Notes: generated from the sequence alone by a model not told the origin. A stretch of DNA of 55,732 nucleotides from Candidatus Uhrbacteria bacterium (GCA_943359325.1 CALRHD010000005.1:1-55732); one strand, 5' to 3'. Counted from the first letter of the stretch, positions 11,042 to 52,299 are shown. A program made the numbers and translations.

Positions 11042-11782
11042 GTGTACCTCTACGTCTACGACGAAAGCGTCCAAGACAGAAAAAACGAACGCGAATTGTC
11101 GCTTATTGAAACCCGTTTAACCGACTTGGGGATTGCGGGAAAGATTGCGCGGCTCGCACTTTTTCGCGATGCGACGGAACTTATTCGCGACGAAGTACGC
11201 CGCGGTGTGACGACGGTTGTCGCAGTAGGGAATGATCAAACGTTGCGTAAGGTGCTCGACGCGGTGCAGGACCCGCAGATCGTCGTCGCCATTATTCCGC
11301 TTGGGGGGAATAACGACATTGCGGCAATGCTTGGTGTGCCGCAGGGTGTGGCGGCGTGTGACACGCTTTCGGCACGGCTCGTGGAGGAAATGGACGCAGG
11401 AAGTGTGAATGGCATGCGATTTTTACACATCGCGACAGCAGAAAATGTGCAACCGAGTTGTGTGTGTGAAGGGAAATACGCCGTGCAACCCGTTCGTCCG
11501 AGCACGATTGAAATTCGCAATCTTGCCCAGTCGGCGGAGTTCGGGACTGCCGACCCCACGGACGGTAAGCTCGAATTCGTCATGAAAACGCCTCGTCGAC
11601 GTTGGTTCGTCCGCAAAACCGACGCGGTAACGGTTATCCCGTTTACCCACATTCTCATGAAAAGCCAAAAACCCATGACGATGTTTGTTGATGGTGAAGC
11701 GGTCGAAGGCACCGAATTTGACGTCAAAGTCCTCCCTCGCCAGATGCGGGTGGTAACGGGAAAAGAGAGGAAATACGCCTAG
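11042..11782 (+). CDS. Diacylglycerol/lipid kinase (DAGK_cat/YegS-like) family protein
   Basis: VVAVGNDQTLRKV resembles a degenerate GGDGT motif and IIPLGGNNDIA matches iiPlGTgNDfA. GTG start. The 3' end overlaps the convergent VKOR gene by about 59 nt. Confidence 0.65.
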   Translation: MYLYVYDESVQDRKNERELSLIETRLTDLGIAGKIARLALFRDATELIRDEVRRGVTTVVAVGNDQTLRKVLDAVQDPQIVVAIIPLGGNNDIAAMLGVPQGVAACDTLSARLVEEMDAGSVNGMRFLHIATAENVQPSCVCEGKYAVQPVRPSTIEIRNLAQSAEFGTADPTDGKLEFVMKTPRRRWFVRKTDAVTVIPFTHILMKSQKPMTMFVDGEAVEGTEFDVKVLPRQMRVVTGKERKYA

Positions 11783-12200
11783 GCAACACGAACCATCCTA
11801 ATACAAACAGCACTGTCGACGTGATGGCGGAACCCATGCACCACTGGCAGATGGCGTGGATGAGGAAAATTTGGGCGAAAACGAACCAAAGAGAAAAGAG
11901 AAAACCTGCGAGCGTGAATTTCCCTGCGAGGCGCAAGAGCCTCTCGTTTTTTTTGTCGACGGCAATGAACAGCATGCCGAACATTGTGAGGTAGTAGAGC
12001 GCACCGAGGAGCGCAACAGGAATGCCGAAGATTTCCGAGTAGCTGCTTGTGGTGACGACTTGGCAGCCGTGCGTAATGGTGCAGGGGAGGCGTGCGTCGG
12101 TGTAATGTGCCACGGTCAAATATGTTGCGTCGGCAAATCCGAGTAGCGCAACGCCAAGCATTGTCAGCGGTAACCAACGTGATGTTGCGAATATTGACAT
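11724..12200 (-). CDS. Vitamin K epoxide reductase (VKOR) family protein
   Basis: Multi-TM protein with a loop Cys pair (PCTITHGC) and a membrane CxxC (CQWC). Confidence 0.8.
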   Translation of the reverse strand: MSIFATSRWLPLTMLGVALLGFADATYLTVAHYTDARLPCTITHGCQVVTTSSYSEIFGIPVALLGALYYLTMFGMLFIAVDKKNERLLRLAGKFTLAGFLFSLWFVFAQIFLIHAICQWCMGSAITSTVLFVLGWFVLPRRISSLFPLPPASGEGGL

Positions 12201-12201
12201 A

Positions 12202-12999
12202 TTATTCTGTCGTAGATCCTGAGCTTGTCGAAGGGGTGTCTTCGGAAGCAGGCGACTGGCTTACTTTTGCAAGCGCTGCCTCAATCACTTTTTTCATGCC
12301 GTCGTAGCCGCTCGGAATGGGAATTGCCGTGCCGTTCAAAAAGAATGACGGTGTGCCCGAAAGGTTTGCCGCAATCGCGCTACGATGATCGGCGTTTACG
12401 CGTGCTGCTGTTTCGGGAGACGTGTAGTCGGCGATAAATTGGTCGGTGTTGAGGCCGAGACTTTGTGCGTACGAAGTAAATGCCTCTTTCGGATTCGGCA
12501 ACGTTCCCCATTCTGATTGTTTTGCAAAGAGTACATTCGCCATTTGGAAAAACGCACCCTGCTTGCCCGCAGCTTCTGCTGCATGCGCAGAATCGAAAGC
12601 ATTTTGGTGAATGTTCTGAAGAGGGAAGTAACGATAGACGAACAATACCTGGTCGCCGTACTCTTCCATGATTCTATTTACGACGGGGCCGAAACGTGCG
12701 CAGGTTGGACACTGAAAGTCGCTGTACTCTACGAGCACAACTTTTGCGTCAGGGTTCCCTTCGGTCCAGTCGCTCGCGTTGACAACACTCGGCAATGGCG
12801 TCTCCACTTTGACACTACTGCCTTTCGACGCCCACACAATGCCGCCGATGATTGCGACAATAATGATGAGTACACCGACGTATTTCATGACGCTTTTCAT
12901 GCCTGCGTTTCTTGCCATTGCTCTGTCGTTCGCCGCTTGCTGTGCCTTTTTCTCTTCGCGGCGCTCCTTGTCATTTTGGAGGATATTTTCATCGGTCAT
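12202..12999 (-). CDS. DsbA-family thiol:disulfide oxidoreductase, membrane anchored
   Basis: YSDFQCPTCARF is a CxxC thioredoxin fold, with an N-terminal TM (VGVLIIIVAIIGGIVWA). The start is moved to the ATG at 12999 because the track extension to 13116 runs into tRNA-Leu. Confidence 0.85.
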   Translation of the reverse strand: MTDENILQNDKERREEKKAQQAANDRAMARNAGMKSVMKYVGVLIIIVAIIGGIVWASKGSSVKVETPLPSVVNASDWTEGNPDAKVVLVEYSDFQCPTCARFGPVVNRIMEEYGDQVLFVYRYFPLQNIHQNAFDSAHAAEAAGKQGAFFQMANVLFAKQSEWGTLPNPKEAFTSYAQSLGLNTDQFIADYTSPETAARVNADHRSAIAANLSGTPSFFLNGTAIPIPSGYDGMKKVIEAALAKVSQSPASEDTPSTSSGSTTE

Positions 13000-13034
13000 A
13001 GTAACCCCATGGTATCGGAAACATGAAAATGGAG

Positions 13035-13072
13035 CAAACAAAAATCCGATGGCAAAAACCATCAGATTCTTG
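13035..13072 (-). terminator. Intrinsic terminator after tRNA-Leu; left arm of a 38-nt inverted repeat
   Basis: On the minus strand it reads caagaatctgatggtttttgccatcggatttttgtttg, a hairpin plus T-run. This is essentially identical to 13409-13446 on the plus strand. Confidence 0.6.
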
Positions 13073-13159
13073 TGGTGCGCGAAAGAGGACTCGAACCTCC
13101 AAGCTATTGCTAGCATCAGCCCCTCAAGCTGACGAGTTTACCAATTTCTCCATTCGCGC
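13073..13159 (-). tRNA. tRNA-Leu, anticodon GAG, type II, CCA encoded
   Basis: Reverse complement: GCGCGAA TG GAG..CTC, anticodon stem TCAGC/GCTGA with loop TTGAGGG, 15-nt variable arm, T arm GGAGG-TTCGAGT-CCTCT, TTCGCGC A CCA. Confidence 0.88.
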
Positions 13160-21157: not shown

Positions 21158-22023
21158 AATTTTATGACGCGACCACTTCGTATTACATACTCTGGAGCTC
21201 TCTATCACATCACTGCTCGCGGCAATGAGAAGAAAGATATTTTCTTTTCCGACAGCGATCGCAGTCGTTTTTTGACAACTCTGGGTAATGTCGTAAGGTC
21301 ATATAATTGGATCTGTCACGGTTACTGTTTGATGGATAATCATTATCATCTACTGATTGAAACACCAGAAGGCAATCTATCGGAAGGTATGCGGCAACTG
21401 AACGGCATGTATACGCAGTCGATGAACAAGGTTCGCGGTCGGGTCGGTCACCTTTTTCAAGGAAGATTTAAAGCATTTCTTGTTGAGCAAGAAACATATT
21501 TGCGAGAAGTCGCCCGATATATTGTTTTAAATCCTGTGCGCGCAAAGATTGCCCGTCGACCAGAGGATTGGCGTTGGAGTAGCTATAGGGCCATGGTGGG
21601 TATTCGTGCGGTTCCTGATTTTCTTACTACACAAAATATACTCCGACGCTTTAGCTCGACAAAAAAGATCGCAATACAGAGGTATCGTGATTTTGTCTAC
21701 GAAGGGATTGGTGCGAGAAGTCCATTCCATAATGTACAACATGGTACATTGCTTGGCTCGCAGCAATTTGTTGATGCAATGTGGCAAGCAAATGACACGT
21801 CACACCTCACAGAAGTTTCAAAAGAAAATCGTATTATTGGACGTCCATCACTAAAAGATTTATTTTCAGGGAAACCAAGCAAAAAAGTTCGCAATCATAT
21901 GATTTGTGTCGCAAGAGATCAGTGCGGATATCCTATGATCGAAATTGCAAAAGCATTAAAAATACACTACTCGTCGGTGACGAGAATTTATAAAATGAGT
22001 AATAACAAGACCTGACCCCTTTT
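21120..22023 (+). mobile_element. 904-bp unit: a Y1/HUH transposase gene bounded by perfect 32-bp inverted repeats
   Basis: The left arm aaaaggggtcaggtcttgttattactcatttt (21120-21151) is the exact reverse complement of 21992-22023. Confidence 0.8.
21164..22015 (+). CDS. HUH/Y1 transposase-like protein (IS200-like / REP-associated tyrosine transposase family) with a C-terminal DnaA-C-like HTH
   Basis: PLRITYSGALYHITARGN, CLMDNHYHLLIETP (HUH), GHLFQGRFKA, ARYIVLNPVRA (catalytic Tyr region), WRWSSY. The C-terminal CGYPMIEIAKALKIHYSSVTRI is HTH-like. Confidence 0.85.
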   Translation: MTRPLRITYSGALYHITARGNEKKDIFFSDSDRSRFLTTLGNVVRSYNWICHGYCLMDNHYHLLIETPEGNLSEGMRQLNGMYTQSMNKVRGRVGHLFQGRFKAFLVEQETYLREVARYIVLNPVRAKIARRPEDWRWSSYRAMVGIRAVPDFLTTQNILRRFSSTKKIAIQRYRDFVYEGIGARSPFHNVQHGTLLGSQQFVDAMWQANDTSHLTEVSKENRIIGRPSLKDLFSGKPSKKVRNHMICVARDQCGYPMIEIAKALKIHYSSVTRIYKMSNNKT

Positions 22024-30138: not shown

Positions 30139-30882
30139 GTGTCTATGGATGAAGAACGCGTTGAGGTGACGTTGCCGGAACGGCCGGTTTTTACACGCGA
30201 ACAAAAAGCAGGGTACGCCGTTGTGATTGCATGCGGCGTTCTTGCGGTTACACTGGGCGTTTTTTACATGGGGAAGCACATCACGAGTCCGTTTGCAATA
30301 AATTACACAGGTGACCGTTTGTTGACGGGTGAAGCGGCGCGCGCCGCCGAAGTTACAGCGCAAAAATCGCTTGACACCGACTTGGACGGCATGAACGACT
30401 ACGACGAAATGAACGTCTACGGGAGCAGCCCGTATTTGAGTGATACCGACGGTGACGGCATGAATGACAACATGGAAATTACGTCGGGTGGTGATCCAAC
30501 GTGTGCAATCGGTGCCGCATGCAGCAACACAAACGATGCACTTATTGGCAACACCGTTTCTGCAGGCGATCTTTTGGAGGGGACAGGCGTGAGTGCCGCA
30601 GCCGCGACAACATCGATCGATCAAATCAAGCAGATGCTTACGAATATGTCGCCTGCAGATATTCGTACAATGCTTATCGACGCAGGCGGCGATGCAGCAC
30701 AAATTACCGCCATGAGCGATACCGAAGTGACTGCCATGTATGCAGAAACTGTTGCGCAGCTCGAATCTTCAGGCCAGCTCGACGCGATTATTGCGCAGAT
30801 TCAGCAAGCGCAAGCAACACCACCAGTGGTGGAAGAGACTCCTGACTCCAGCAGCCAGTCATTAGAGGCTGGTAGTCAGTGA
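30139..30882 (+). CDS. Membrane-anchored protein with thrombospondin-type-3-like Ca-binding repeats
   Basis: TM segment AGYAVVIACGVLAVTLGVFYM, then DTDLDGMNDYDE and DTDGDGMNDNME. GTG at 30139, or ATG at 30145. Confidence 0.7.
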   Translation: MSMDEERVEVTLPERPVFTREQKAGYAVVIACGVLAVTLGVFYMGKHITSPFAINYTGDRLLTGEAARAAEVTAQKSLDTDLDGMNDYDEMNVYGSSPYLSDTDGDGMNDNMEITSGGDPTCAIGAACSNTNDALIGNTVSAGDLLEGTGVSAAAATTSIDQIKQMLTNMSPADIRTMLIDAGGDAAQITAMSDTEVTAMYAETVAQLESSGQLDAIIAQIQQAQATPPVVEETPDSSSQSLEAGSQ

Positions 30883-30919
30883 TCCTGCTCCCTACAATCC
30901 TACCCTCCTACGAATACAT

Positions 30920-33900
30920 ATGCCCATCCGCTCTCACAAAAAATTCCTTCTCGGCTTCATGCTCGGAGTGTTGTTGTTGGTGCAAGGATTGGCGTTTATG
31001 CCAGAGCGGGTATTTGCACAAAACCAATCAAACACCGTGACAGACGCGCCGCGCCTTGCAGAATATGGCATTACTCATGGCGTTACGGAGCCTACAAAAA
31101 TGTCGCTTGTTGGTGCGATCTTCACCGCAATTGTCAACCTCCTCACTTTTGCGGCGAATCGTTTAGCATACGATGCCGCGGTCATGTTGGCTTCTGGTGG
31201 CGCTGACGAACAGCCGCTTATTGAGTTCCGCAGCCCTGAAGCATTTTTTGCCGACTACACTTCTGCAGTCGCCGGTGAAGCGATCGGTCAGTTGAACGCC
31301 ATCAACGCAAGCAACGGTGTGCTCACGAATTTCAATCTTTGTGCGCCAGACGCACAGATAATTCTTGCACTCAAACTCGGCATTAAGTCGTCGTTTCGTC
31401 GTCCGGAGCCGCGTTGTGACTTTAACGAAGTCAAAACAAACTGGAAGGGTTTTCTTGCGCAGGTCGCAGTTGATAATCCATCTGACCTCATAAAAAATGA
31501 AGTCATTCTTTTGCAGCTCAAAGACGCATTTGATCCGCAGGTAAATCAATTTTCTGTCGGCTTGCAGCTGTACAGCGACATTCTCGGACAGTCGAAATTG
31601 AATGCAGATATTTTCACGAGCAAGCTCCTCATGAACGGTCCAACGAAGGACGTTGTCGACGTCATAACGGGCAATGTCAAAACGCCCGCGTCGATGATTG
31701 ATTACGCATATAACGATAGCGCAGCAAAGGCAAAAGATGTCGATTTCGAGATCGCAAAGACGGTGCTCCAGAACACGGACACTCTTCTGCAGGTTGGTGT
31801 TTCGATGCTTTCTGTTTTTGCGAATACACTGCTTTCGTCGCTGACCGACAGATTATATACAGGACTTTTTGACTTTAATACGCCGACTGCCGATCCGTTT
31901 GACGCAGGCATGTTTACGTCTTCGAATCGCGCACAGGCACAACAACGTTTTCAATCCATTCTTTCTGTCGCGCCACTCGAGGTGACGAACTATAACGTAC
32001 TCGCTGACTTTTCAAGCTGCCCTTCGAATGCGCGTGGCCTTTACAACTGTGTTGTTGATACGTCGTTCGTGACTGCGGTTGCAAGAGCAAGTGCGGGTGT
32101 GCCGATGACACTTTCCGAGGCGGTTGATGATGGACTTATCGACAGCAGCTGGCCGCTCATTTCTTCGACCGACTCGGCACGCGACCAAGATCCGTATTGC
32201 TATACATACGGTTTTTGTCACAGCAATCTCGTAAAACTTCGCAAGGCACGCATTATCAGTATTGGGTGGGAACTTGCGGCAGAGTCGGGTGGAACGTCGA
32301 CGAACGACCCCGTGACACTCCAAGAAGTGATGGACGGTTTTTATGACTGCAACACGGTAGGTGAACTTGATGCGAACCATCCGTGGTGCAAATTGATCGA
32401 CCCTGACTGGGTGCTGAAGTACCCCGACACGCAGTGTAGGCAGTTGGTGTACGGGCAGCTCACAGAGTCGGCGGCAGCAGCAACGCGCAAACAAGAGTGT
32501 GTCGACTCACCAAGTTGCATTGATGAAGATTCCGACGGGAACTGCACGGGTGGTTACGGCTACTGCGTTCGCGAGGCAAATGTGTGGAACTTCCGCGGCG
32601 ACGCGTGCCCTGAATATGCTGCGTCGTGTTTGACGTTTACTGATCCACAGCGTGATGACGCAAGCTATTTGCTTAACACTGTTGACTACGGAACGTGCGA
32701 CGAAGGAAATGCAGGGTGCTTGTGGTACGCGACGCAAAAAGAAGAACAGACGGATGGGACATTCGCATGGCCAACTGTCGACAGCATCGAAACTGCGGAC
32801 GCCGAGAGCGACGCGTACAAAAATCGTTTGTATCTCACGGCGCAAGTTTCTGATTGTGACGAAGAAAACGGCAGGTGCAGCGAACTTGTGGAGCGCGATA
32901 ATGATTTGCGCTTGAATGCAATAGTGAACCCGAGTTTTGAAGACGACGCCGAAACAGATGGTGTTGCCGATGCGTGGACGTATTCCGGCACCGATGTTGC
33001 GTACGATACGTCGGGTACATATTCGTTGCACGGCGACGATGCGGTGAATCCGGGAGCGTCGGCGTTGTACGAAACGGGCATCACGATGGAGCAAGGTCGA
33101 ACGTACACACTTTCGTATTACGCTCGCCAAGAAGATGGCGGCACAGGCGAAGAAAGTAGTATTCTCATTGCATTCGATAATGACGACACAACTGAAGCTA
33201 TTGATGTGCGCGGCACGGCATATTCTGGTGACTGTGCATTATATGGCAGCGCGCGAAATATTTTGGAAGTCACAGGAACGCCGAGTAGCACAACCTACGA
33301 ACGCTACACCTGCACGTTGACGTCGCCGATTTTGGCCAATCGTGGCGACCAGCTTTTTGCCTACGTTCGTGTGAATCCTGCGAACGTGTGGGTTGACGAT
33401 CTCCAATTGGAACAAGGTGAGGACGCAAGCGCATACCACGAAGGGTACAGTACGTCGGATTTGTCGACGACGGTTGTGAAGGTGCCGCCTGCATATTTGG
33501 GCTGCACAGGGAACGCCGATACCGACTCTGCCGGCTGCGCGAATTACGCAGCAGTGTGTTTGGAAACCGAAGTGGGTTGCACGCAATATTCTCCTTCGAA
33601 TGGCGACCCCGACGTGTTCGGCATTACCGACGACAACGACGTGTGCCCATCGGCATGTGTGGGGTACGACACATTTAAACAAGAAGCAACGCTGTACGAA
33701 CCAAACGGTGATTTTCCTGTATACTTTATCCCGAGTACGGCCGAGGAATGCAGCGCAGAAGAGGTCGGTTGCGATGAATTCACAAAGCTCGACGATGAAA
33801 GTTTGGCGTATTTTACCTATGTTCGTGCATGTTTGACGACGTCGCAGGCCGATGCAAACACCGGCGGCGATCAATCGGCAACGTTTTATACATGGGAGGG

Positions 33901-36900
33901 TTCGGACTTGGATGGGTACCAGTTGAAAACGTGGAACCTGATGGAGTCGAACATGGATGGCTACACAACTGCGACGTACACGACGTCGGGACTTGCCGAA
34001 ACAAATCCCGGCCATGCGCCGTGTACGAGCTGGACGACAAACGGTAGCGGTGTGACGTGTGACGACGACGTGCTTTCTGCCATTGGCGATTTTGACACCG
34101 ACAGCAGCGACTGCGACGAACACGATGATATTTTCAGCAACCCAAGCTGTCGCGAATTTTACGATACGGATGGCAACATTCACTATCGCGATTGGTCGTT
34201 GACGGTGACGGTGAACAACGCGTGTACGAGTTATCGTAAAACCGATTTGGTCGGTCTCGGCGACGATGCCGACAGTGATGGAACAGATGATGGCAATGAA
34301 AACTGCACGCAATCAGGCGGCTACTTTGATGCAGTCACGAACGAGTGTCGCTATTACGGTTTCGCCGACGAAAGCGTGACGTGCGATGAAAGTGCGCATG
34401 GTTGCCGCAACTACACGGGTGGTCGCAGTCGCAATAGCAGCATCGTGCTCGAGGAATTATTCGAGGACGGAGATTTGACGAATTGGGACGCGCCATCAGC
34501 TATCGACGTGACGTATAGCAACGAGTCGATCGCGACAGACGGCCATTCGTTGGCGTCGACCGGTAAGGCGGTGTGGACGTATCTGTATGACAAAGGCACG
34601 GCATGCGCCGAAGAAGACGGCTGTGCTGCGGCAACGACCGGCACGCTCGGCGGCAACTGCACGGTTGAAAACGGCGCGCAGTATTGCGGTACGATCATTG
34701 ATACGTTGGTACAGGACAAAACCTATACGCTGACATTCTGGGCGAAGGGTACGGGCGACATCACGGCAGGTTTTGCGCTCGATGCCGTGCCTGACGTCAC
34801 AACATTTGCCCGCACCGACGCCGTGTTCGACACGGTTACACTTTCGACATCGTCGTGGCAGAAATACACGCTTGGTCCTTTGAATATCAGCAGTGATCGT
34901 TACGAAACATTTGGTGACAACACCGTGCTCGCGTTTATTCCGGAAAGTGGTGTGACGTTTTACGTTGACAACATCACACTCCGCCAAGGCGAAGATAATA
35001 TTACGCTCATTAAAGACTCGTGGGTTACGCCGGCATCGTGCGACGAAGCGGCCGACGGCACTGCGTCACCACAATATTATTTAGGCTGCCAAGAATATGT
35101 GACGCAAGACGGTGACATTGCAAATGTCAGTTCGTTCTCGGCGTTGTGTCGTGAGGAAGTTGTTGGCTGTGATGACTTCTTCGCGACGCACGAGTCCGAG
35201 TCGCCGTATGCACAAGTGTATGGTGCGACGTGTGCAACGCCAGATGGATTGCCCGTTGCAACCGCGACGGATTGCTACCGTGATGCAGGGGAAAGTTCGG
35301 ACGTCGTGACGGCAGAGGTTGAAGCGGCTGCGGCAGCGTCAACGTCGACGATGAGTGTAGACGATGCTGCGGCGCTCGTGTCGTCCACGTATTCCACGTT
35401 GCAATTCAGTGCGGTGCAGACTGCAGTGGGAGACGCATTGAGTGCGATTGATGGTAGTGCCGCAGCGCAGGCGGCCTACGATGCTGCATATGCGGCGTAT
35501 ATTGCAAGCGATGAATATGCGGCGTATCAGGATGCGCTCGATGCCTACGACGCCGCCGTTGCACTTGCCGCATTTACACCTGCACAGGAAGCATATGACG
35601 CCGCGCAAACAACATACGACGCTGCATTGGCGGTGTATACGGCGGCGCAAAGTGTGTACGACGCCGCGGTTGCTGCAGCAGGAACCGCGACAACGTCGAC
35701 CGACGCCGCGACTGCACTTGCGAACGCACAAGCCGCTGAGGCAACTGCACACGCAACACTTATTGCTGCTGCCGATGCAAATGACGCCGCACTTGTTATT
35801 TTAAATGTCGCCCGAGTTGCGTGGAGTAACGATGTACTCCTTACGCCGTTTGACCACTCCGACGAAGACCACGCGCTCGCCGCGGCTTATTATGCTGCGG
35901 TTGCTACGTACAACGCAGGTGGCACAGCTGATGCATACAATACGGCAAATGCGGCATATACCGCCGCACAAGAATTAACGGTTGCTGCGCAAGCGTTTTA
36001 TGACGCCAGTGCTACGCTCGATGCTGCCGATGCCGCGCAAACTTCCGCGTACGATGCCGCACATGCTCTTGACCTCGCCATGCAGGAAGCGAAGCGTAGG
36101 TTCGACGCTGCTCCGACTGATGCGGGCTTAGAAAGCGCATACGAATTTGCGTACGACGCGTATTGGTATGGCCCCGAGCTTGCTGCGTATCTCGCGTCTC
36201 AAACTGCGTACAACACGGCCGCCGATGATTACGAAATTGCCTACACCGCGTATCAGGATGCAGCCGACGCAGTAGTTTCGTCTGGCTATTCCGACGCAAC
36301 AGATACGTTCGACGCCGCGCAAGCAATTTACGACGATGCACTGGCGGCATACAACGATGCGCAAGCAACATACGACATTGCTGTTGCCGCATACGCCGCA
36401 TTTTTGGCGGATGTCGAAGCAGACGATGCCGCTGAAGCCGCGGCCGCTGCGGAAGCCGCAAGTGAAGAGAGCGGCGTCGACTATTCGACCGCGAGCTACG
36501 ACACGACGTCGCCGTACCTTTGCACGATTGGCGTTGGTGAAGCGTCGTGCAGTTTTGACGTCGACTACTACATTCCACGTTCTACATTCATCGATGCACA
36601 GGCGCATTTGAGTTACGGGCCGTCAACGCACATTGTGTCGGCCGACACGTCGCAATTCTTGGTTGTGAACGACGACGTCACCTGCAGCACCGCGGAGGCA
36701 GGGTGCACAGAGCTTGGATTGCCGACGTTTAGCGCCGACCGCCAAAATATTTCCGCAAGTACGTCCGTTTACCTCATAAACGACCCCGCGAGCTATGCCG
36801 ACATTCTGTGTAACCACGAAGATCTGTTCTGCCAAGCGTACGATACGGAAAATAAAGGCACGTTCTATTTTAAGGATCCTGTTGACCAAACATGCGAATA

Positions 36901-39900
36901 TCGCACCGACGTCACGATAAGCGGCAGTAACTATGATGGGTGGTTTAGAAATGGCGGCGATGATTTCTGCTACGGCACATGTACTGAGGGCGGCAACGCG
37001 TGTTCGAGCGACGCCGATTGTGGCAGCGGCGATTCGTGCAATACGGAGCAGGGCTCGTATGTGATTGGCGGCGACCAGTCCGGCATTTGGAATAACGGCG
37101 ATGCGGCGTATGGCGGGTGGGTCGGGAGTTGTGACGAGCAGTATAGCGGCTGCACAGAGTTCCAGGATTTGCTCGATATCGCCGAGGGTGATGTGTACGG
37201 AGCGGTCGACGGTGAGTCGTATTTCTACCTTGATAATTCGTCGCTCGAAGAAAGCACGCTTGCCGATGCACAGCGTTGCAATGGGCAGGCAAGTCAAAAA
37301 GCAGGCTGTGCGCTGTTCCACGACACAACCGACAGCAGCACCACGTCGAACATGAGTGCGACGTACGTTGCGAGTCAGCATGCCGACGCGCTGTTTGGTG
37401 ACGATCCATTCTCGCTTGTCGATCCTGTTGACTGCAGCAGCACGAGCGCGTCGACGATTACTGCCACGAACGGCACAAGTATTGACTTGTGTGCACAGCG
37501 TTGTGCATATCCGACCGCCGACGTGAACGACCTTACCGATCCGTCAGGAACAGGCAGTGTGTACGGCGCATCGTGTTACGAGGGCAATGACTGTGCGCCA
37601 ATTTTGAGCGAGGCAGGTGAGTATGTCGACGCAACCTGCGATACGAGTGACGACGTGACGCGTCTCGAAAACGACGCAAACCGCGTGGTGAAAGTGAACC
37701 GCGACCGCCAGTGCAGCGAATGGTTGACGTGTTCAGATACGCAAACGGTGTGGGACGAAGCAAGCAACAAATTCAAAACTGTGTGTGGCGACGTGTCGCT
37801 TTGCAACGAATATTCCGCGAGCGGCAATGCGTCGTTCTGCTCGTCGCCCGTTGCCGACAGTGTTGCAACAATCATCGACAGTGATCGCTACAGCGGTCGT
37901 GATGTGTCGTGGTATGGCGACGATTATTCTGGCTACGCCATTCCCGATAGTTTCCCGGTTGAACTTTTGACGCAAGTGTTGACGTCGCCACCCGCGGGGT
38001 TGTGCGACAACTCAGGTGCGATCAATTACGACGGTACGCCATTCGACTTCACCACGAGCACGGTGCATGGCACGGAGTGTGATATTGATACCGACTGCGA
38101 CGATGGCGCGAACCCTGATGCAGTCACCGGAGAAACATGCACGTTGAGTACCGAAACAGAAACATATGCGCTTACATTTAATGCGGGAAGCTGTACGGAA
38201 AGTTATGGTGTGAGTTGCACTATCGGCTACTGCGAAAACACGGGTGAGGCATGTGCAGCACAGGCAGAATGCGGCACTGACGCAGGCGACTGTGTGACGG
38301 GCATTTGCTATGACGTCGATACGGCGTCAACATGTACCGTCGACAGTCAGTGCAACAGCGGCTTCTCGTGCTTGAGCGGGACGTGTGTTGACGAAAAAGG
38401 ATCGCTTCCCGTTGAAGATGCAACATGTGCCGATGCAGGCTATACCGCACGTGTGGGAACATTGACGCTGTACCAAAGTGTGCTCGCAAAACTCGGCACC
38501 TGTGTGCGAGAGAGTTGTTTGTTGACGCAAGATGGCCAGCCGTTCGACGTGACGAATGAAGAAACGAAACTTTGTCGTGCGCATCCCGAAGCGAATAGTC
38601 CATTCCCGAACGAAGTGGTCGAAGAATGGAAGTACATTAAAAATTCTGATGCGCCAGCAGGTGTATGGAACGGTACGTCGTCAACAACGAGTGACGTGGC
38701 CGAGATTGACTCCGATACGATAGGCGGTTCGGCTTCGGCAGCGTTCAGTACATTGTCGGGCTTTGGGAATGTCCAATTGTGTAGCCCGAACGAAGATTGT
38801 TCGTGCTCATATAAAAAAATCACATACGGAGACAGCGGCGATACGAAGTTTTTGGCGCTCGACTCGTCGCTCGACGAAAACCTGATAGGCGTGTGCAATG
38901 GTGGCGATTTCAATGGTGCATTTTGCAGTTCTTCGGCGACGTATTATGGGGCGTCGGAGAACCATATCGGCAATGAGGTGGTCAACGAAACAACGTGCAC
39001 AGGCGGTGAAGGGGTTTGCAACTACCCCACACGTTCCGACGCGTTGCTTGGTATGGACGGCTATTGTTTGGAGCACGATACTGCAACAAATATTCACGGA
39101 AATCGCGACGCCGACCACCGTGCGTGTCTCACATGGTTGCCCGTCGACCAGCTTGTGGGTTCCACGGATTTGCATGCGAAGTATAAGAGTGCAGGCTTCT
39201 TTGGTGATACCTACGCTTGCGTCGAAACACGGCCGTATGTGGACCTACCAATTAGCAATTATGGGTCAAATCCTGGAGATACCGCATGTGCAGAATTGAA
39301 CGATAGTGCGGCTGGTTGTGATGCGGGGGAAGATTGGACGAGTCACCTGACAAGTTGCGCAGAAAATGTGGTTTGTCCTGAAAACTATTTCGCCATTTTG
39401 GGCGCGTGTTCATGGGATGACGCTACGTCAGATAACACCCTTGCAGATTCGTGTGTTGATGCGGGATACAACGACTGCCCTTACGTTTGCGTTCCAGAAG
39501 ATGCGCATACGCCAGAGGGCGGAGATTGTAATCCTGCAGACGCGGATAATGATGGAATTGCCGATAACTATGATCTGCAAACGAGAAGTGGGAGTGGTAC
39601 GCTCGTATATGGATGGGTAAACGGCGCGTTAAGCGACGTTGAGCCTTCAAATACAGATTATCAGGCATTCGACGATGTCATCACAGGGGTTTACAAAGAG
39701 TGTGTTGCAAAAGGCGTGCAAATAGATGCGAATAATGTTGATAGTGATATCCTGGATTTTCCAGGAACGAATGAAACTACCGCAGGCCCCGATGAGGCGT
39801 ATAGATATTTGAGCATGACGCAAAAATATAGCGTTGATATATATCCTGCGTGCAAAATATTGTTACGCGTTACCGATGACGATCAAGGGTTTGCGTGGAC

Positions 39901-41158
39901 TGATAAGATTTATAATGCGGCGCGTGCAGTGGAAAATGCGATTTCGACTACAGTCACTGGTTTGGCATACCGAAACCTAACCCTTCCTACGCCGTTCGGT
40001 GTGAGCGGTCTTGATCCGAATAATCTTTCGGAATCGAGTGCAGAACCCGCACCGCCCGCAAAAGTGGCGACATGTCACAATCAGAGTCGTGATTCCTTCG
40101 AACTTCCAACCGACGATGATGGTGACGGTGTATTCGACGATTGCGATGACTCAAGCACCACAAACTTTTCTGGTACGGGGAATGACCCCGCTGCTCCAGA
40201 TGCACGTTCTTTCGTCGACTATATTCTTGATTATTATGCAAGAACTACTTCGTATCAAGGAATTTGGAGTACGGATCCGACGACAACACTTTTTGCAAAT
40301 TTGCAACAAGTATTTGCGCGTCCGGCCTTAGATGACGATTATGCGTATTCATGGACAGGAAATTTGGATACATCAAGTAATCGTCGATACGTTGCGGGTA
40401 GCACGTCGACATACTCAACATACGACTCCCGCGCGGAGAGTGGCGAACCGCCAAAGGTGTGGTCGCTCGATTTAGCGAACTGCGAGGGGGATACGTGTGA
40501 AGAGGGCAACGAGGGGAGTTTGACGCTCAACTCGACGGATAATGGCGAGCAAACGGGGAGTGCGTTTTTCCGCGCGTACCTCAAGTTTTATGCTGCGGCG
40601 AACGAGAATCAATTGCCACTTCGCCGCGTCATCGTTGACTGGCAGGACGGTGGGCAGATGACAGGCTCGACCGCGTCAACAAACTACTACAAAAATCATC
40701 GTGGGTTGCAAACAGGCAGCACGTCGTCGATTTGTAATACCGCTTCGACGAGTCCGTTGTATCGTTGGGGCATGAATAGTGAAAGCTGCGACAGCGACTA
40801 CTTCAGTTACAGTAATATCTACACGTGCACAGAAGGCAACATTGCGACGTACGACAGCTGTACGTACGACACGAACGGCAACGTGACGAACAGCCCATGT
40901 ACAGACGGCACATCGTGTGTGTACCGACCACGCGTCCACTTAGAGGACAACTGGGGCTGGTGCTCGGGGGTGTGTGAGGAAGGCACTTCCCGCGACGATG
41001 ACGACTCGACGGGGTGTTTTGTGGGGGCGACGCGACCGGTGCTGGATTCTGGAAATGATATAGATAGTGAGTGTGGTTATCTTAGACATCCATTAGAGTC
41101 ACTTGGTGAAGTAGACCCATGGGTGTACTACGACGGCGCAATTGTGGTGACGCCATAA
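30920..41158 (+). CDS. Giant (3,412 aa) secreted Cys-rich surface protein with two CBM/galactose-binding-like jelly-roll modules and an Ala/Tyr/Asp-rich central segment
   Basis: A single uninterrupted ORF. N-terminal signal: KKFLLGFMLGVLLLVQGLAFMPERVFA-Q. NPSFEDD..W..VWVDDLQLEQGE and LFEDGDLTNW..FYVDNITLRQGE are CBM4/9-like. Has TSP3-like DxDxDG motifs. Every other-frame ORF across this span is short. Confidence 0.92.
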   Translation: MPIRSHKKFLLGFMLGVLLLVQGLAFMPERVFAQNQSNTVTDAPRLAEYGITHGVTEPTKMSLVGAIFTAIVNLLTFAANRLAYDAAVMLASGGADEQPLIEFRSPEAFFADYTSAVAGEAIGQLNAINASNGVLTNFNLCAPDAQIILALKLGIKSSFRRPEPRCDFNEVKTNWKGFLAQVAVDNPSDLIKNEVILLQLKDAFDPQVNQFSVGLQLYSDILGQSKLNADIFTSKLLMNGPTKDVVDVITGNVKTPASMIDYAYNDSAAKAKDVDFEIAKTVLQNTDTLLQVGVSMLSVFANTLLSSLTDRLYTGLFDFNTPTADPFDAGMFTSSNRAQAQQRFQSILSVAPLEVTNYNVLADFSSCPSNARGLYNCVVDTSFVTAVARASAGVPMTLSEAVDDGLIDSSWPLISSTDSARDQDPYCYTYGFCHSNLVKLRKARIISIGWELAAESGGTSTNDPVTLQEVMDGFYDCNTVGELDANHPWCKLIDPDWVLKYPDTQCRQLVYGQLTESAAAATRKQECVDSPSCIDEDSDGNCTGGYGYCVREANVWNFRGDACPEYAASCLTFTDPQRDDASYLLNTVDYGTCDEGNAGCLWYATQKEEQTDGTFAWPTVDSIETADAESDAYKNRLYLTAQVSDCDEENGRCSELVERDNDLRLNAIVNPSFEDDAETDGVADAWTYSGTDVAYDTSGTYSLHGDDAVNPGASALYETGITMEQGRTYTLSYYARQEDGGTGEESSILIAFDNDDTTEAIDVRGTAYSGDCALYGSARNILEVTGTPSSTTYERYTCTLTSPILANRGDQLFAYVRVNPANVWVDDLQLEQGEDASAYHEGYSTSDLSTTVVKVPPAYLGCTGNADTDSAGCANYAAVCLETEVGCTQYSPSNGDPDVFGITDDNDVCPSACVGYDTFKQEATLYEPNGDFPVYFIPSTAEECSAEEVGCDEFTKLDDESLAYFTYVRACLTTSQADANTGGDQSATFYTWEGSDLDGYQLKTWNLMESNMDGYTTATYTTSGLAETNPGHAPCTSWTTNGSGVTCDDDVLSAIGDFDTDSSDCDEHDDIFSNPSCREFYDTDGNIHYRDWSLTVTVNNACTSYRKTDLVGLGDDADSDGTDDGNENCTQSGGYFDAVTNECRYYGFADESVTCDESAHGCRNYTGGRSRNSSIVLEELFEDGDLTNWDAPSAIDVTYSNESIATDGHSLASTGKAVWTYLYDKGTACAEEDGCAAATTGTLGGNCTVENGAQYCGTIIDTLVQDKTYTLTFWAKGTGDITAGFALDAVPDVTTFARTDAVFDTVTLSTSSWQKYTLGPLNISSDRYETFGDNTVLAFIPESGVTFYVDNITLRQGEDNITLIKDSWVTPASCDEAADGTASPQYYLGCQEYVTQDGDIANVSSFSALCREEVVGCDDFFATHESESPYAQVYGATCATPDGLPVATATDCYRDAGESSDVVTAEVEAAAAASTSTMSVDDAAALVSSTYSTLQFSAVQTAVGDALSAIDGSAAAQAAYDAAYAAYIASDEYAAYQDALDAYDAAVALAAFTPAQEAYDAAQTTYDAALAVYTAAQSVYDAAVAAAGTATTSTDAATALANAQAAEATAHATLIAAADANDAALVILNVARVAWSNDVLLTPFDHSDEDHALAAAYYAAVATYNAGGTADAYNTANAAYTAAQELTVAAQAFYDASATLDAADAAQTSAYDAAHALDLAMQEAKRRFDAAPTDAGLESAYEFAYDAYWYGPELAAYLASQTAYNTAADDYEIAYTAYQDAADAVVSSGYSDATDTFDAAQAIYDDALAAYNDAQATYDIAVAAYAAFLADVEADDAAEAAAAAEAASEESGVDYSTASYDTTSPYLCTIGVGEASCSFDVDYYIPRSTFIDAQAHLSYGPSTHIVSADTSQFLVVNDDVTCSTAEAGCTELGLPTFSADRQNISASTSVYLINDPASYADILCNHEDLFCQAYDTENKGTFYFKDPVDQTCEYRTDVTISGSNYDGWFRNGGDDFCYGTCTEGGNACSSDADCGSGDSCNTEQGSYVIGGDQSGIWNNGDAAYGGWVGSCDEQYSGCTEFQDLLDIAEGDVYGAVDGESYFYLDNSSLEESTLADAQRCNGQASQKAGCALFHDTTDSSTTSNMSATYVASQHADALFGDDPFSLVDPVDCSSTSASTITATNGTSIDLCAQRCAYPTADVNDLTDPSGTGSVYGASCYEGNDCAPILSEAGEYVDATCDTSDDVTRLENDANRVVKVNRDRQCSEWLTCSDTQTVWDEASNKFKTVCGDVSLCNEYSASGNASFCSSPVADSVATIIDSDRYSGRDVSWYGDDYSGYAIPDSFPVELLTQVLTSPPAGLCDNSGAINYDGTPFDFTTSTVHGTECDIDTDCDDGANPDAVTGETCTLSTETETYALTFNAGSCTESYGVSCTIGYCENTGEACAAQAECGTDAGDCVTGICYDVDTASTCTVDSQCNSGFSCLSGTCVDEKGSLPVEDATCADAGYTARVGTLTLYQSVLAKLGTCVRESCLLTQDGQPFDVTNEETKLCRAHPEANSPFPNEVVEEWKYIKNSDAPAGVWNGTSSTTSDVAEIDSDTIGGSASAAFSTLSGFGNVQLCSPNEDCSCSYKKITYGDSGDTKFLALDSSLDENLIGVCNGGDFNGAFCSSSATYYGASENHIGNEVVNETTCTGGEGVCNYPTRSDALLGMDGYCLEHDTATNIHGNRDADHRACLTWLPVDQLVGSTDLHAKYKSAGFFGDTYACVETRPYVDLPISNYGSNPGDTACAELNDSAAGCDAGEDWTSHLTSCAENVVCPENYFAILGACSWDDATSDNTLADSCVDAGYNDCPYVCVPEDAHTPEGGDCNPADADNDGIADNYDLQTRSGSGTLVYGWVNGALSDVEPSNTDYQAFDDVITGVYKECVAKGVQIDANNVDSDILDFPGTNETTAGPDEAYRYLSMTQKYSVDIYPACKILLRVTDDDQGFAWTDKIYNAARAVENAISTTVTGLAYRNLTLPTPFGVSGLDPNNLSESSAEPAPPAKVATCHNQSRDSFELPTDDDGDGVFDDCDDSSTTNFSGTGNDPAAPDARSFVDYILDYYARTTSYQGIWSTDPTTTLFANLQQVFARPALDDDYAYSWTGNLDTSSNRRYVAGSTSTYSTYDSRAESGEPPKVWSLDLANCEGDTCEEGNEGSLTLNSTDNGEQTGSAFFRAYLKFYAAANENQLPLRRVIVDWQDGGQMTGSTASTNYYKNHRGLQTGSTSSICNTASTSPLYRWGMNSESCDSDYFSYSNIYTCTEGNIATYDSCTYDTNGNVTNSPCTDGTSCVYRPRVHLEDNWGWCSGVCEEGTSRDDDDSTGCFVGATRPVLDSGNDIDSECGYLRHPLESLGEVDPWVYYDGAIVVTP

Positions 41159-41224: not shown

Positions 41225-42250
41225 ATGGTCACAAACATTTCACACCTCAACAAAACAGGTCTCCTTATTTCTATAAAAAATGGGGCATGGTTTGAGTCGC
41301 CGAGCGAACGGGGCTTCACTCACCTCGCGGAATATTGCATGCAGCGAATGATTATTGATCAGTGCGAAGCAGCAGGTGTGAACATGCAGTCTTTTTGTGT
41401 ACAGGGAGAAACAACTCTCGATCGTGTTCGGTTTGCAATATTTTTTGCGCCAAACGATGCCGAACGCGTTGTATCGATTGTTTTGGAGTGCTGCAAAAAT
41501 CCTCCATTTACCACGCACAGTATTCGTCAAGAAATGCGCGAATTGCGTGGCGACTTTATTGATTCATATAAAAATCCTTATTTTCGAGCGGGGCTCGCTC
41601 TTATTCCTCGGTTCATAAAACGCAACTCTTCAGTTTTCGGATCAGTGTGGTTTCACCTTTTTGCACGAGGGCCGAAGCGAGAATACTTGCTTCAATATTG
41701 GCACAAGCTATGGTCGGCGTCTTCGTGCGATGTTCTCCTGTTTGGCACATGAAACGATAAGCAAAAAAATATCGTTGGTGCACTCTCTACCGATGCACAT
41801 ACTTCCACTCCATCTACACACCGTATTTTCGAACATCACACAATATGTGAGAAAAAATATGTGGGTGTGCTTTGGCAGGAGTCATGTTTTTCTCCTTTTT
41901 ATGCCTTGGTTGATACGGTAATGGATCGGCGTGCCGAAACTGTAAACGAAAATACGCAGCTGTTGTCGATCAATCGTGGGTCGTGGTGCGGGTATGTGTT
42001 GTTAAGCAGTAATAACAAGGAGTGGCAGGAGGCTTTTGCAAAAGATGTTTCGGTCGAAGAGTGGCAGGATGCAAAAATTGCGTATAAGTTTTTTGTAAGT
42101 AAAATATTATCGGGGATAAATATTTATGAGGATGTTTTCTATTGGGACGATTGCACGTCGTTGTCCGACTTCGCAAATCTTGTCGCAGAAAGCACATATG
42201 AAGAGTTCCAAGCATATTGGGTACAAACGATCGCCACCAATAAACAATGA
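41225..42250 (+). pseudogene. M16 (pitrilysin)-like peptidase homologue, apparently inactive and broken by two frameshifts
   Basis: LNKTGLLISIKNGAWFESPSERGFTHLAEYCM has the zinc motif HxxEH reading HLAEY. The reading frame switches 41189-41752, then 41661-41921, then 41861-42250. Joined in that order, the pieces give the usual M16 layout. An A-run (gagaaaaaat) sits near the second switch. Confidence 0.4.
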
Positions 42251-42291
42251 ACCCCATTCGCTTTCACGAATGGGGTTCTCGATTTTTACGC

Positions 42292-43128
42292 CTACTCGTC
42301 GCAAGTCGCTGCTTTCGTCATGGTGCAGACGATGTTTTGACGATTTTCTTCGAAGACGAGGAGCGTGAAGCTCATGTCAGTTGGCGTCAACCAACTTGTG
42401 CCAGGAACAAGACTCTCGATCGCACCATTTTCAGTGGTGAGGACGAGCGTTGATCCTTTCACGCTCCATACGCCTTGAGCGCTGCCCAAATTGCTCATAC
42501 ATGAGCCACTGCATTCTGGGAGGATCCTCTCTCCGTCCATTCGGACAATGATCGGATCAAACGACGTCACGCCAGTGTAGAAGTCGTATGCCTTGGTCTC
42601 GTCGTTGTACACCCACGTCTCCTCGGTGCACTCATACCACCCGAGCAAGTACAGCGCCAGCGGCACGTCGACGGTGGGGTTTTCACCCTCCGTCATCTTG
42701 TACTGCATCGCCTCGTAGGTGTACGTGTTGCCGTTCACCTGTTGCAGGGGCGTGCCGTCGAACACTTCCTCCACGTTGCCGCGAAGGTTGCATGCACGTT
42801 CGGCGTTCACGTCGCCTGCCGCGACGTAGAGCGGCGTGTTCGCCGGTACTTCGAGGGAGGAGTCGGAGGGTCCGGTCGCGACCAGCGTATCGAGGTCGAT
42901 CGCGAAACATTCATTGCGTTCAACCCCGTCATCACAGATGCCAGGGCCGAGGCGCTTCTGTGCGTAGACATCGACCGTACCATCGACGGGTTCGCCGTCG
43001 AGACTCGTCGTGCCAACGAACGTGGTCATGGTGACGTCGACACCGGTGTCGGTGTTGATGCCATCCGAATTGGCGTCGCCAGTGCAGCCCACAATGGCCG
43101 CAAAAGCGAGGAAAAATGCGCGTTGCAT
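42292..43128 (-). CDS. Lipoprotein, hypothetical, with C/G-ending codon bias
   Basis: MQRAFFLAFAAIVGC has a lipobox-like IVG-C. AGAGG lies upstream of the ATG at 43128. The track ORF start at 43188 is an extension. Confidence 0.7.
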   Translation of the reverse strand: MQRAFFLAFAAIVGCTGDANSDGINTDTGVDVTMTTFVGTTSLDGEPVDGTVDVYAQKRLGPGICDDGVERNECFAIDLDTLVATGPSDSSLEVPANTPLYVAAGDVNAERACNLRGNVEEVFDGTPLQQVNGNTYTYEAMQYKMTEGENPTVDVPLALYLLGWYECTEETWVYNDETKAYDFYTGVTSFDPIIVRMDGERILPECSGSCMSNLGSAQGVWSVKGSTLVLTTENGAIESLVPGTSWLTPTDMSFTLLVFEENRQNIVCTMTKAATCDE

Positions 43129-43245
43129 GGAAACCTCTATTTTGGGAAAAAGTGGGGTGCACGGAGAAAAGAAAGAACAAGTGTGCACTCAAAACATAGT
43201 CCAAAAATCCCATTTTGTCAACTTCTCGGAGTTATCTGGAGTTAT

Positions 43246-43342: not shown

Positions 43343-43924
43343 ATGCGCGACATTACTTTTGGGACAGGAGAGTACTATCATGTTTACGTGCGGGGTGTTG
43401 ATAAGAGGAATATGTTTATGGATGACGTCGACCGACGGCGTTTTCTGGCAACGATGCAGAAGGCGAATATCATCGACGATCAATGCCGAGTGGCTATTAT
43501 AAGCTTCGTACTCATGTCGAATCACATACATTTGCTCTTGCGGCACGAGAGGAGCGATGGAGTACCCGCATTCATGCAACGTTTACATAATTCGTACGCA
43601 AAGTATTTTAACAAGCGTCATGATCGCGAGGGGCATCTTTGTTCGTCGAAGTATAAAGCAAAGCACATTGACTCTGACGCTTATTTTCTTCACCTCACAC
43701 GGTATATCCACAAAAATCCTTTATCTTTGCGCGGAGTGACGTCACGAACATTGGAGGAATATCGATGGTCGAGCTATCGACATTACCTGGGTTTTGAGCG
43801 TCAACCATTTGTTGACGCGGAGGCAGTGCTGGGGGACTTCAAAGAGCAGGGGTCATACCGTGCGTTCATGAACATCAGATTGCATAATGATGTTATTGAA
43901 CCTTATCTTTTCAATGAGGAGTAG
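43343..43924 (+). CDS. HUH/Y1 transposase-like protein (REP-associated tyrosine transposase-like)
   Basis: YYHVYVRG, FVLMSNHIHLLLRH (HUH), GHLCSSKYKAK, LTRYIHKNPL (Tyr motif), YRWSSYRHYLG. Confidence 0.82.
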   Translation: MRDITFGTGEYYHVYVRGVDKRNMFMDDVDRRRFLATMQKANIIDDQCRVAIISFVLMSNHIHLLLRHERSDGVPAFMQRLHNSYAKYFNKRHDREGHLCSSKYKAKHIDSDAYFLHLTRYIHKNPLSLRGVTSRTLEEYRWSSYRHYLGFERQPFVDAEAVLGDFKEQGSYRAFMNIRLHNDVIEPYLFNEE

Positions 43925-44787: not shown

Positions 44788-45288
44788 TTTCTTGGTCACT
44801 ATGCGATTGCCGTGAAATTTCAAATTTTCAAAACGTAAAAAACCGATATCCACAGCATCTGCCGAAACCCACCGACAGGATTTGGTGCAGGGGTTAGCGG
44901 TGAAATGAAAAGTGTGTCGGAGCTCACCGACAAAAACTCCCCACTTTTCTCTTTTGACTTTCCGCTTTCTGATCGAAAATGGATATAGGACGTTCAACAA
45001 CGTTCAACGGAGAAACAAAAACGCCGACGGGCAACGAAAGGCGGACGACGTACCCTGTGCATTCGCGAGATGGCGATACGAATTGCGTGGCAGCTTCACG
45101 GCGCGCCACGACGTTCAACACGCTGCTACCGCATTGCACGGCGCGCGTCGTCCAGGGTCTGGTGCTGACTGTTGGGGAGTCGTCACACTAGACCCGCGCC
45201 CCTTTCGTCTCGCTCCTCATGTTCGCGCCGCCCTCATGCTGTTTCCTCACGATGGGGAAACTCCCAAAGCAGGAGGGATGCGTCAACC

Positions 45289-47076: not shown

Positions 47077-47088
47077 GCAAACAATCTC

Positions 47089-47141
47089 ACGGCGTCTCTC
47101 CCTCGTTATCTCCCGAGGTTCTGAGGGGCGCCGTTTGTTTT
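47089..47141 (+). terminator. Possible compound hairpin terminator after the M23 gene
   Basis: acggcg..cgccgt closes an inner cctcg/cgagg hairpin and is followed by ttgtttt. Confidence 0.3.
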
Positions 47142-47189
47142 CGCGAATGACGTAACGGGGGACAACTCCACCGTACGACGTGCAGCATG

Positions 47190-47198
47190 TGTTATAAT
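47190..47198 (+). promoter_or_regulatory. Extended -10 element (TGTTATAAT), 10 nt upstream of the ATG at 47209; would give a near-leaderless mRNA
   Basis: tgttataat at 47190-47198. No good -35 and no SD before 47209. Confidence 0.3.
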
Positions 47199-47208
47199 TC
47201 CACAAACT

Positions 47209-49422: not shown

Positions 49423-49449
49423 CCCTCATTTGGGAGGAACGTTTGCGTT

Positions 49450-50982: not shown

Positions 50983-51020
50983 TAAAACGTGCAAAGAGAA
51001 AAGCATGATACAATGTATGT

Positions 51021-51461: not shown

Positions 51462-51464
51462 TCT

Positions 51465-52154: not shown

Positions 52155-52160
52155 TTCGAT

Positions 52161-52290
52161 GGCGTTCGTTTGACTCAGAACATTCCTTGCACTCCACCTG
52201 CTGCGCTACGCCGTTCACGACTTGTAAACTCGTCGACGGCTGTGCGACAGACGTTACGTGCAAAGAATGTTCCGAGTCTGACGAACGCAC
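52161..52290. repeat. Long imperfect palindrome, family B, copy 2 (130 nt), filling the gap between the two VirB4 ORFs
   Basis: ggcgttcgtttgactcagaacattccttgcac ... gtgcaaagaatgttccgagtctgacgaacgcac. Confidence 0.8.
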
Positions 52291-52299
52291 AACCCACTT

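Follow-up and report, generated by a model that had tools for sequence, protein, structure and literature searches.

The question raised by this locus is what an uncultivated, ultrasmall bacterium makes of a protein of 3,412 residues. The protein is encoded by a single open reading frame (ORF) in a stretch of 55,732 nucleotides from Candidatus Uhrbacteria (GCA_943359325.1 CALRHD010000005.1:1-55732), the whole of which we call the window. A first-pass annotation, made from the sequence alone, had described a secreted, cysteine-rich giant protein with a membrane-anchored partner encoded just upstream, and had suggested that it was an adhesin or host-contact fibre. On the evidence set out below, we think it probable that the partner and the giant form, at the cell surface of Candidatus Uhrbacteria, a conserved assembly of two proteins that is disulfide-stabilized and binds glycans.

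The giant gene is one open frame with an ATG start and 10,239 nt long, or 18.4% of the window, in agreement with the rounder figures of about 10.2 kb and 18% given previously. A scan of GTDB (one genome per species) with two conserved peptides as query, its patterns drawn from residues 361-660, found relatives encoded in 365 species genomes; most of the best 80 have the label Candidatus Uhrbacteria or Patescibacteria, and the lineage is that of the Parcubacteria group, Candidatus Uhriibacteriota. By tblastn, the giant aligns colinearly with related loci from end to end, with an identity of 30-57%, and 48 loci contain a complete single-frame ortholog of 2,936-3,408 residues. In a full-length alignment with these 48 orthologs, 124 of the 130 cysteines of the giant are kept in at least 80% of the sequences, and most are invariant. 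The colinear single-frame orthologs, the conserved cysteines and the conserved signal peptide (see below) show that the giant ORF is a real gene under selection. Full-length colinearity, the shared cysteine pattern and the upstream partner place it in a large uncharacterized Uhrbacteria family, a membership that the earlier reading had missed. The possibility raised there, that the ORF might be an assembly chimera with internal stops, does not agree with the data: the intact orthologs apart, the whole ORF lies within 13-14 kb of DNA that is 100% identical in an ENA assembly and in a Logan assembly of run ERR3719144, which come from two assembly pipelines, and the same protein is present on five contigs.

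In five of the orthologous loci (L001, L002, L003, L062 and L076) the giant gene is broken by frame changes into two to five ORFs, probably as a result of sequencing or assembly indels, with pseudogenization being possible. The family has left few traces in protein databases. A search with the N-terminal 660 residues found 12 fragmentary relatives from Patescibacteria, unnamed or called "hypothetical protein", and segments of the giant gave 5-12 fragmentary "hypothetical protein" matches each, so that the alignments available for modelling the structure were shallow. No paper on the family was found in the literature.

The N-terminus of the giant has a typical Sec layout, in which MPIRSHKK is followed by a hydrophobic core and a predicted cleavage site between VFA and Q. 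By hydropathy, residues 6-29 are the strongest hydrophobic segment of the protein, and the orthologs keep the same n-h-c arrangement with an AxA-type cleavage site, so that the cleavable signal peptide proposed in the first-pass annotation is confirmed. The public gene call begins 26 codons late, at Met27 (3,386 residues, with positions 30920-30997 omitted), and the signal peptide is therefore absent from database entries of the giant. The mature protein would have a mass of approximately 360 kDa and an isoelectric point of approximately 4.05, with 529 Asp and Glu against 149 Lys and Arg. Cysteine accounts for 3.8% of its residues, compared with 0.7% in the 19 other proteins of the window; the description of a secreted, cysteine-rich giant is thus accurate.

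No anchor was recognized in the giant itself. The C-terminus, which ends in DPWVYYDGAIVVTP, has no LPXTG, and the combination of LPXTG, hydrophobic segment and basic tail that marks a sortase-anchored adhesin is lacking. Beyond residue 310 the only hydrophobic segments detected by hydropathy are two weak ones, both within the Ala-rich insertion discussed below. Residues 59-82 were considered as a transmembrane (TM) anchor and rejected, given that the signal peptide alone passes the hydropathy threshold in orthologs L004, L010 and L039, a basis limited to three orthologs. Because it has no TM segment, LPXTG or recognized wall-binding domain, the giant is most likely tethered at the surface by the product of the partner gene.

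The partner, encoded 37 nt upstream of the giant, is predicted to begin with a short N-terminal stretch in the cytoplasm, followed by a TM segment (residues 22-48, nt 30202-30282) and an ectodomain whose C-terminal part is helical. In its two DxDxDG-x2-D-x2-E loops, conservation of the Asp and Gly positions across 78 orthologs reaches 70-90% or more. The first-pass annotation had read it as a membrane protein with two TSP3 repeats. The TM segment, the two loops and the 37-nt gap were all found; the assignment to TSP3 holds by motif and is borderline by Pfam threshold, with a score of 23.0 bits to TSP3_bac (PF18884), below the 25-bit cut-off. Among the five partner orthologs scanned, only that of L075 passes (45.4 bits). 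The two conserved loops are like those of bacterial TSP3 proteins (PF18884; the MtsD-like cohesion proteins of NCBIfam). Typical TSP3 proteins, however, have long arrays, whereas the partner has two repeats. The giant itself also contains DxDxDG strings, which had been taken as scattered TSP3-like motifs. Four are present, at residues 535, 1116, 2874 and 3065, but they are sporadic, being kept at position in only 0-6 of the 48 orthologs, and no TSP3 match to the giant was found in Pfam at E <= 0.1.

In 81 of 83 loci, the gene immediately before that of the giant encodes a homolog of the partner, and the contigs of the other two begin inside the giant gene. This adjacency supports a functional pair and is a far stronger argument for it than the 37-nt gap on which the partnership had originally been proposed. 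Upstream of the partner, the orthologous loci usually have rsmA, sua5/tsaC, an epimerase gene and a release-factor gene (prf), and no conserved gene was found 3' of the giant gene across these loci. With the partner always upstream and no conserved gene downstream, the conserved unit is exactly this pair. Scans for promoters and terminators gave counts at or under shuffle expectation and were uninformative. The coordinates of the two genes and of the regions discussed here are given in Table 1.

Table 1. Location of the partner gene, the giant gene, their recognized or proposed parts, and the disulfide-forming gene pair in the window.
Feature	Position	Strand	Residues	Description and basis
Partner gene	30139..30882	+	247 aa	Single-pass membrane protein; translation, hydropathy, synteny, 78-ortholog profile
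Two DxDxDG-x2-D-x2-E loops of partner	30373..30477	+	79-90; 102-113	DTDLDGMNDYDE; DTDGDGMNDNME
C-x5-C of partner ectodomain	30502..30522	+		CAIGAAC; conserved among orthologs
Giant gene	30920..41158	+	3,412 aa	Translation; colinear with 48 complete orthologs
Signal peptide, Sec-type	30920..31018	+	1-33	Predicted; sequence, hydropathy 2.33, ortholog layout
N-terminal region	31019..31999	+	34-360	Mostly alpha-helical prediction (AlphaFold2 DSSP, pLDDT ~40)
Most conserved family block	32000..32899	+	361-660	NLVKLRKARI(I/S)IGWELAAE and first C-x6-C motifs
CBM_4_9 module 1	32915..33409	+	666-830	Pfam PF02018, 39.6 bits
Inter-CBM Cys-rich region	33467..34429	+	850-1170	C-x6-C at 880, 944, 1155; highly conserved
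CBM_4_9 module 2	34442..34999	+	1175-1360	Pfam PF02018, 27.1 bits; paralogous to module 1
Ala/Tyr heptad insertion	35276..36517	+	~1453-1866	Window-specific, ~400 aa, between invariant Cys1452 and Cys1868
Central and distal Cys-rich region	36518..40426	+	1867-3169	C-x6-C at 1964, 2071; no known domain
Conserved C-terminal domain	40427..41155	+	3170-3412	12 conserved Cys
VKOR and DsbA-like thioredoxin genes	11724..13116	-	158 aa; 304 aa	VKOR 11724-12200; DsbA-like 12202-13116

The cysteines of the giant are not randomly placed. The first-pass annotation had noted a recurrent GC..[FY] module and quoted eight strings, all of which are found in the giant, one having been slightly misquoted (the true reading is REEVVGCDDF). 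This element is the second cysteine of a pair, and the actual motif is C-x6-C-x2-[FYW], with a consensus of roughly C-[SPD]-[EA]-x-x-[VA]-G-C-x-[EA]-[YF]-T. The giant has eight strict copies, whereas 5,000 shuffles contained 0.49 on average and never more than 4, and every one of the 48 orthologs has 6-10; neighbouring cysteines spaced seven apart occur 16 times in the giant, where 3.8 are expected. The motif is approximately 12 residues long with little conservation outside it, and it occurs at fixed positions, for example directly flanking each of the two carbohydrate-binding modules (CBMs). One CBM with its flanking cysteine motifs has been duplicated once within the protein (residues 677-890 and 1230-1420, E = 3e-7 by self-BLAST). 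Given this length, the fixed positions and the single duplication, the motif is best read as a recurrent disulfide-loop staple rather than as a tandem domain. The recurrence noted earlier therefore stands, but as that of a short motif and not of a tandemly repeated domain. Tandem Repeats Finder detected only trivial repeats in the giant, and self-BLAST only the CBM duplication and one other, within the insertion. The motif had been said to have no recognized name, and indeed no match to a named domain was found in Pfam (with the giant, its sub-segments and 15 orthologs), in NCBIfam, or in the PDB by sequence and profile.

Both jelly-roll modules of the CBM4/9 type that had been noticed in the giant are supported. 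Scanned separately, each exceeds the gathering threshold of CBM_4_9 (PF02018), 25.9 bits; the full-length giant scores 48.3 bits, and this is the only Pfam match in the whole protein. CBM_4_9 was also matched in 13 of 15 orthologs. Module 1 has a weak PDB profile match to the CBM chains of an S-layer-associated endoglucanase, and the family profile found only CBM4-type chains in the PDB, including that of laminarinase 16A (1gui_A, E = 4e-4). Searches of NCBIfam and of the PDB sequence library found nothing in the giant beyond CBM_4_9. By their scores, the two modules appear to be ordinary members of PF02018, comparable to CBM4-2 of laminarinase 16A (PDB 1gui). Unlike the usual CBM4/9 proteins, the giant has no attached glycoside hydrolase domain, and the CBMs constitute only approximately 10% of its length. 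Some 2,600 conserved residues of the giant are without a Pfam model, which represents a gap in domain annotation.

According to its Pfam description, CBM_4_9 is classically appended to glycoside hydrolases, and the PDB matches are to CBMs of a laminarinase and an endoglucanase. The giant could thus be a secreted enzyme or toxin, with a novel catalytic or membrane-active domain in residues 361-660 or elsewhere, CBMs that target host polysaccharide, and a partner that serves as chaperone or export helper. In favour of this reading, residues 361-560 are the most conserved part of the giant, and the N-terminal 330 residues are predicted to be helical. The mean identity of residues 361-660 to the 48 orthologs is approximately 0.4-0.66 per 50-residue bin, with its peak at residues 401-450. 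We nevertheless consider an enzyme or toxin improbable. No catalytic family was found in 15 orthologs or in the PDB profile search, and a protein with 3,000 residues and 65 possible disulfides would be unusual as a diffusible enzyme. Residues 34-360 were without a match in Pfam, NCBIfam and the PDB, and Foldseek found nothing significant for them. The matches of the low-confidence N-terminal model to alpha-pore-forming toxins of the ClyA/AhlB type, like its other Foldseek matches, were non-significant (E > 0.4, TM-score < 0.2) and were rejected as long-helix noise.

The copy in the window has one unique insertion of at least 60 residues in the family alignment, the Ala/Tyr segment at residues ~1453-1866, which the first-pass annotation had not recognized as such. 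Its occupancy in the 48 orthologs is 0.00 from residue 1501 to residue 1750 and does not exceed 0.12 in the bins at its edges, and it is also absent from three context loci. The equivalents of Cys1452 and Cys1868 in the orthologs are 7-24 residues apart, and the window copy retains the first residue of this loop and its end, ...YDTTSPYL. The insertion is 34% Ala and has no cysteine. Tyr recurs in it with a period of seven (autocorrelation 0.37), and residues 1515-1581 are duplicated at 1759-1819. At the DNA level it contains degenerate direct repeats with spacings that are mostly multiples of 3, including 21, 42, 63 and 714 nt, and its codon usage matches that found elsewhere in the gene. AYDAA, which recurs in the insertion, is similar to the A(F/Y)DT of the ancestral loop. 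From these features we infer that a heptad-coding unit was amplified in place, and not that a domain was acquired from a foreign source.

No homolog of the insertion was found in two scans of JGI metagenome contigs, and Pfam gave no match at E <= 10. When 1.84 billion representative proteins were searched exhaustively with HMMER, the only matches were the giant itself and P0022, a helical protein with 20 repeats. Homology to P0022, and with it a FIVAR-like origin of the insertion, was rejected: the E-value of 1e-16 is the sum of 20 weak matches between Ala-rich helical repeats, and a single unit has E = 0.39.

An Ala-rich segment unique to one genome could also be a mis-join, in which case the single ORF of the giant would reflect a chimeric assembly or a pseudogene, and the five loci in which the gene is split by frame changes would agree with such an artefact. 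We regard it as extremely unlikely. The insertion is in frame, has native codon usage and heptad periodicity, and starts and ends within the conserved loop residues Y...YDTTSPYL, and there are the 48 intact orthologs. Mis-assembly of the insertion in particular is largely refuted, because the ENA and Logan assemblies are identical across the locus and five contigs encode the same protein.

A single-sequence AlphaFold2 model of the insertion consists of helices, each 45-60 residues long, with short turns between them and two blocks having a predicted local distance difference test score (pLDDT) of 70-94. Foldseek found no significant global match to the model. Local superpositions on the receptor-binding domain of colicin E3 and on the AcrA hairpin had a root-mean-square deviation of approximately 2 Å over 75-104 residues. 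With moderate confidence, we read the insertion as an arm of antiparallel helices that leaves and re-enters the disulfide-closed loop. In the colicin E3/E9 receptor-binding domain and the AcrA hairpin, two long helices similarly leave and return at the same point, but the insertion has no sequence similarity to either, the Foldseek matches have E > 1, and the comparison is with a single-sequence model. The insertion, unique and probably de novo, may serve as an example of how a domain is born when repeats expand within a loop closed by a disulfide.

Taken together, these features suggest how the assembly might be made. The giant would leave the cell through Sec, and its signal peptide, seen in the sequence and conserved in orthologs, would be cleaved. 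Oxidative folding could then lock it with up to 65 disulfides, many of the cysteines forming short C-x6-C loops that would staple turns resembling beta-hairpins. Such folding is suggested by the 130 cysteines, 124 of them conserved, and by a gene pair elsewhere in the window that encodes a VKOR protein (Pfam E = 1e-26) and a DsbA-like thioredoxin (Thioredoxin_4, E = 7e-27; DSBA, E = 1e-15), an extracytoplasmic disulfide system that could oxidize the cysteines of the giant. As gene adjacency suggests, the single-pass partner with its two TSP3-type calcium-binding loops would hold the giant at the surface. The pair of CBMs would bind a glycan, most plausibly an envelope polysaccharide of a host or partner cell, and otherwise that of the cell's own wall. 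In this genome only, a cysteine-closed surface loop would have grown by some 400 residues through in-frame amplification of a 21-nt heptad unit resembling the AYDT of the loop, with the result that a predicted arm of long antiparallel helices would extend outwards from the body of the protein.

That an ultrasmall bacterium should have such a large secreted surface protein is not surprising, and the giant appears to be one, from a widespread, undescribed family. Together with its obligate membrane partner, conserved in hundreds of species and annotated as "hypothetical protein", it is among the most obvious candidates for the surface or host-interface apparatus of the Uhrbacteria. The adhesin or host-contact role suggested in the first-pass annotation is plausible by analogy, and it is a reasonable one because cultivated Patescibacteria are epibionts and glycan-binding proteins are essential in Saccharibacteria. 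Secreted Saccharibacteria proteins with glycan-binding domains are required for epibiotic growth; in Southlakia epibionticum, the secreted glycan-binding envelope proteins SEML1_0315, SEML1_0890 and SEML1_0891 were found to be essential by transposon sequencing and were proposed to target host glycans for adhesion or degradation (PMC10633639). Like the giant, these are surface proteins of Patescibacteria with polysaccharide-binding modules, from organisms thought to be epibionts. They differ in having VCBS, dockerin and FN3 modules and in having been tested genetically, whereas the giant is cysteine-rich, has CBM_4_9 modules and a TSP3-type membrane partner, and is known from sequence alone.

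The giant also resembles the giant repeat adhesins (RTX/Bap-type proteins, LPXTG MSCRAMMs, and Ebh-like proteins with FIVAR) in being very large, acidic, extracellular and probably calcium-associated, and a similar surface contact is predicted for it. Unlike them, it has no tandem domain repeats, LPXTG or RTX nonapeptides, and cysteine is abundant in it rather than rare. Its architecture is fixed and colinear across species, whereas repeat adhesins vary in repeat number. A family that is colinear, non-repetitive and 30-57% identical throughout a phylum-level lineage resembles a conserved envelope apparatus more closely than it does a fast-evolving repeat adhesin.

A second explanation is that the giant is a self-assembling scaffold similar to an S-layer or sheath, tiled in a calcium-dependent manner, tethered by the partner, and with CBMs on the cell's own wall polymer. 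Its near-universal colinear conservation in the lineage as single-frame orthologs, the synteny with housekeeping genes, the extreme acidity of the giant (pI ~4), the calcium-type loops of the partner and the lack of a tandem repeat architecture would all suit such a scaffold. Characterized S-layer proteins, however, are usually cysteine-poor and 40-200 kDa in size, and neither SLH nor any other recognized domain for anchoring an S-layer or forming its lattice was matched in Pfam or NCBIfam. We consider the scaffold rather unlikely, though well above an enzyme or toxin in probability. As judged from its sequence, the giant lacks the defining features of LPXTG adhesins, tandem-repeat adhesins and S-layer proteins alike.

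Several observations weigh against the glycan-binding surface assembly that we favour. The high conservation, the fixed architecture and the housekeeping neighbours (prf, tsaC/sua5 and rsmA) fit a structural component of the envelope no worse than they fit a host-specific adhesin. The TSP3 score of the partner is below threshold. More than 85% of the giant has no known domain match, and residues 361-660 could have a catalytic or other role. AlphaFold2 failed to produce a usable model of the N-terminal 660 residues (12 sequences; pLDDT 44), and the helical-arm geometry of the insertion comes from a single-sequence model with a predicted template modelling score of 0.35. A bolder version of the surface assembly can be offered only tentatively. 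In this version, the partner and the giant would form an undescribed, lineage-defining organelle of the Uhrbacteria for host docking or of the envelope, built from new disulfide-stapled folds, and the coiled-coil arm of ~400 residues would have been gained de novo by heptad amplification from the protein's own loop.

Of the remaining parts of the giant, residues 1867-3169 include a dense cluster of C-x5-7-C pairs (residues 2421-2490) and a more variable stretch (residues 2850-3170). The C-terminal domain has a ...RRVIVDW-DG... stretch and a conserved tail, DPWVYYDG-I-V-P; it had no Pfam match and no LPXTG. On reading only, its W-x-DG motif has a PKD-like look.

Downstream of the giant, positions 45172-55436 (+) contain an envelope, secretion and competence patch with an M23 peptidase (634 residues, 12 cysteines), ORFs of 737 and 510 residues, a VirB4/TraG-like ATPase (52300-54222) and a ComF-like protein. 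Searches of the approximately 3 kb that follow the giant gene in the orthologous loci gave matches to the M23 query at 8 loci and none to the 737- and 510-residue ORFs or to the VirB4-like ATPase; the patch is for this reason probably unrelated to the partner-giant pair. The 187-residue ORF directly downstream of the giant likewise has no homolog in the orthologous loci. Both this ORF and the genes resembling a type IV secretion system were considered as further parts of the system and rejected, since they were not found beside the orthologs.

A strong bidirectional terminator-like hairpin with a stem of 12-13 bp (42249-42278) lies between the 187-residue ORF and a convergent minus-strand ORF (42292-43188). 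ORFs for IS200-like Y1 (tyrosine) transposases are present at 21164-22015 (+) and 43343-43924 (+), and 7 of the orthologous loci, L004 among them, have a homologous ORF just 3' of the giant gene. In the distant ortholog locus L003, bAvd and a reverse transcriptase, an arrangement like that of a diversity-generating retroelement, occur at 963-2285, approximately 8 kb upstream of the partner and giant; none was seen in the window. Near the start of the window, a tRNA-Ile with the anticodon TAT (UAU) is encoded at 939-1015 (+), an uncommon way for a bacterium to read AUA.

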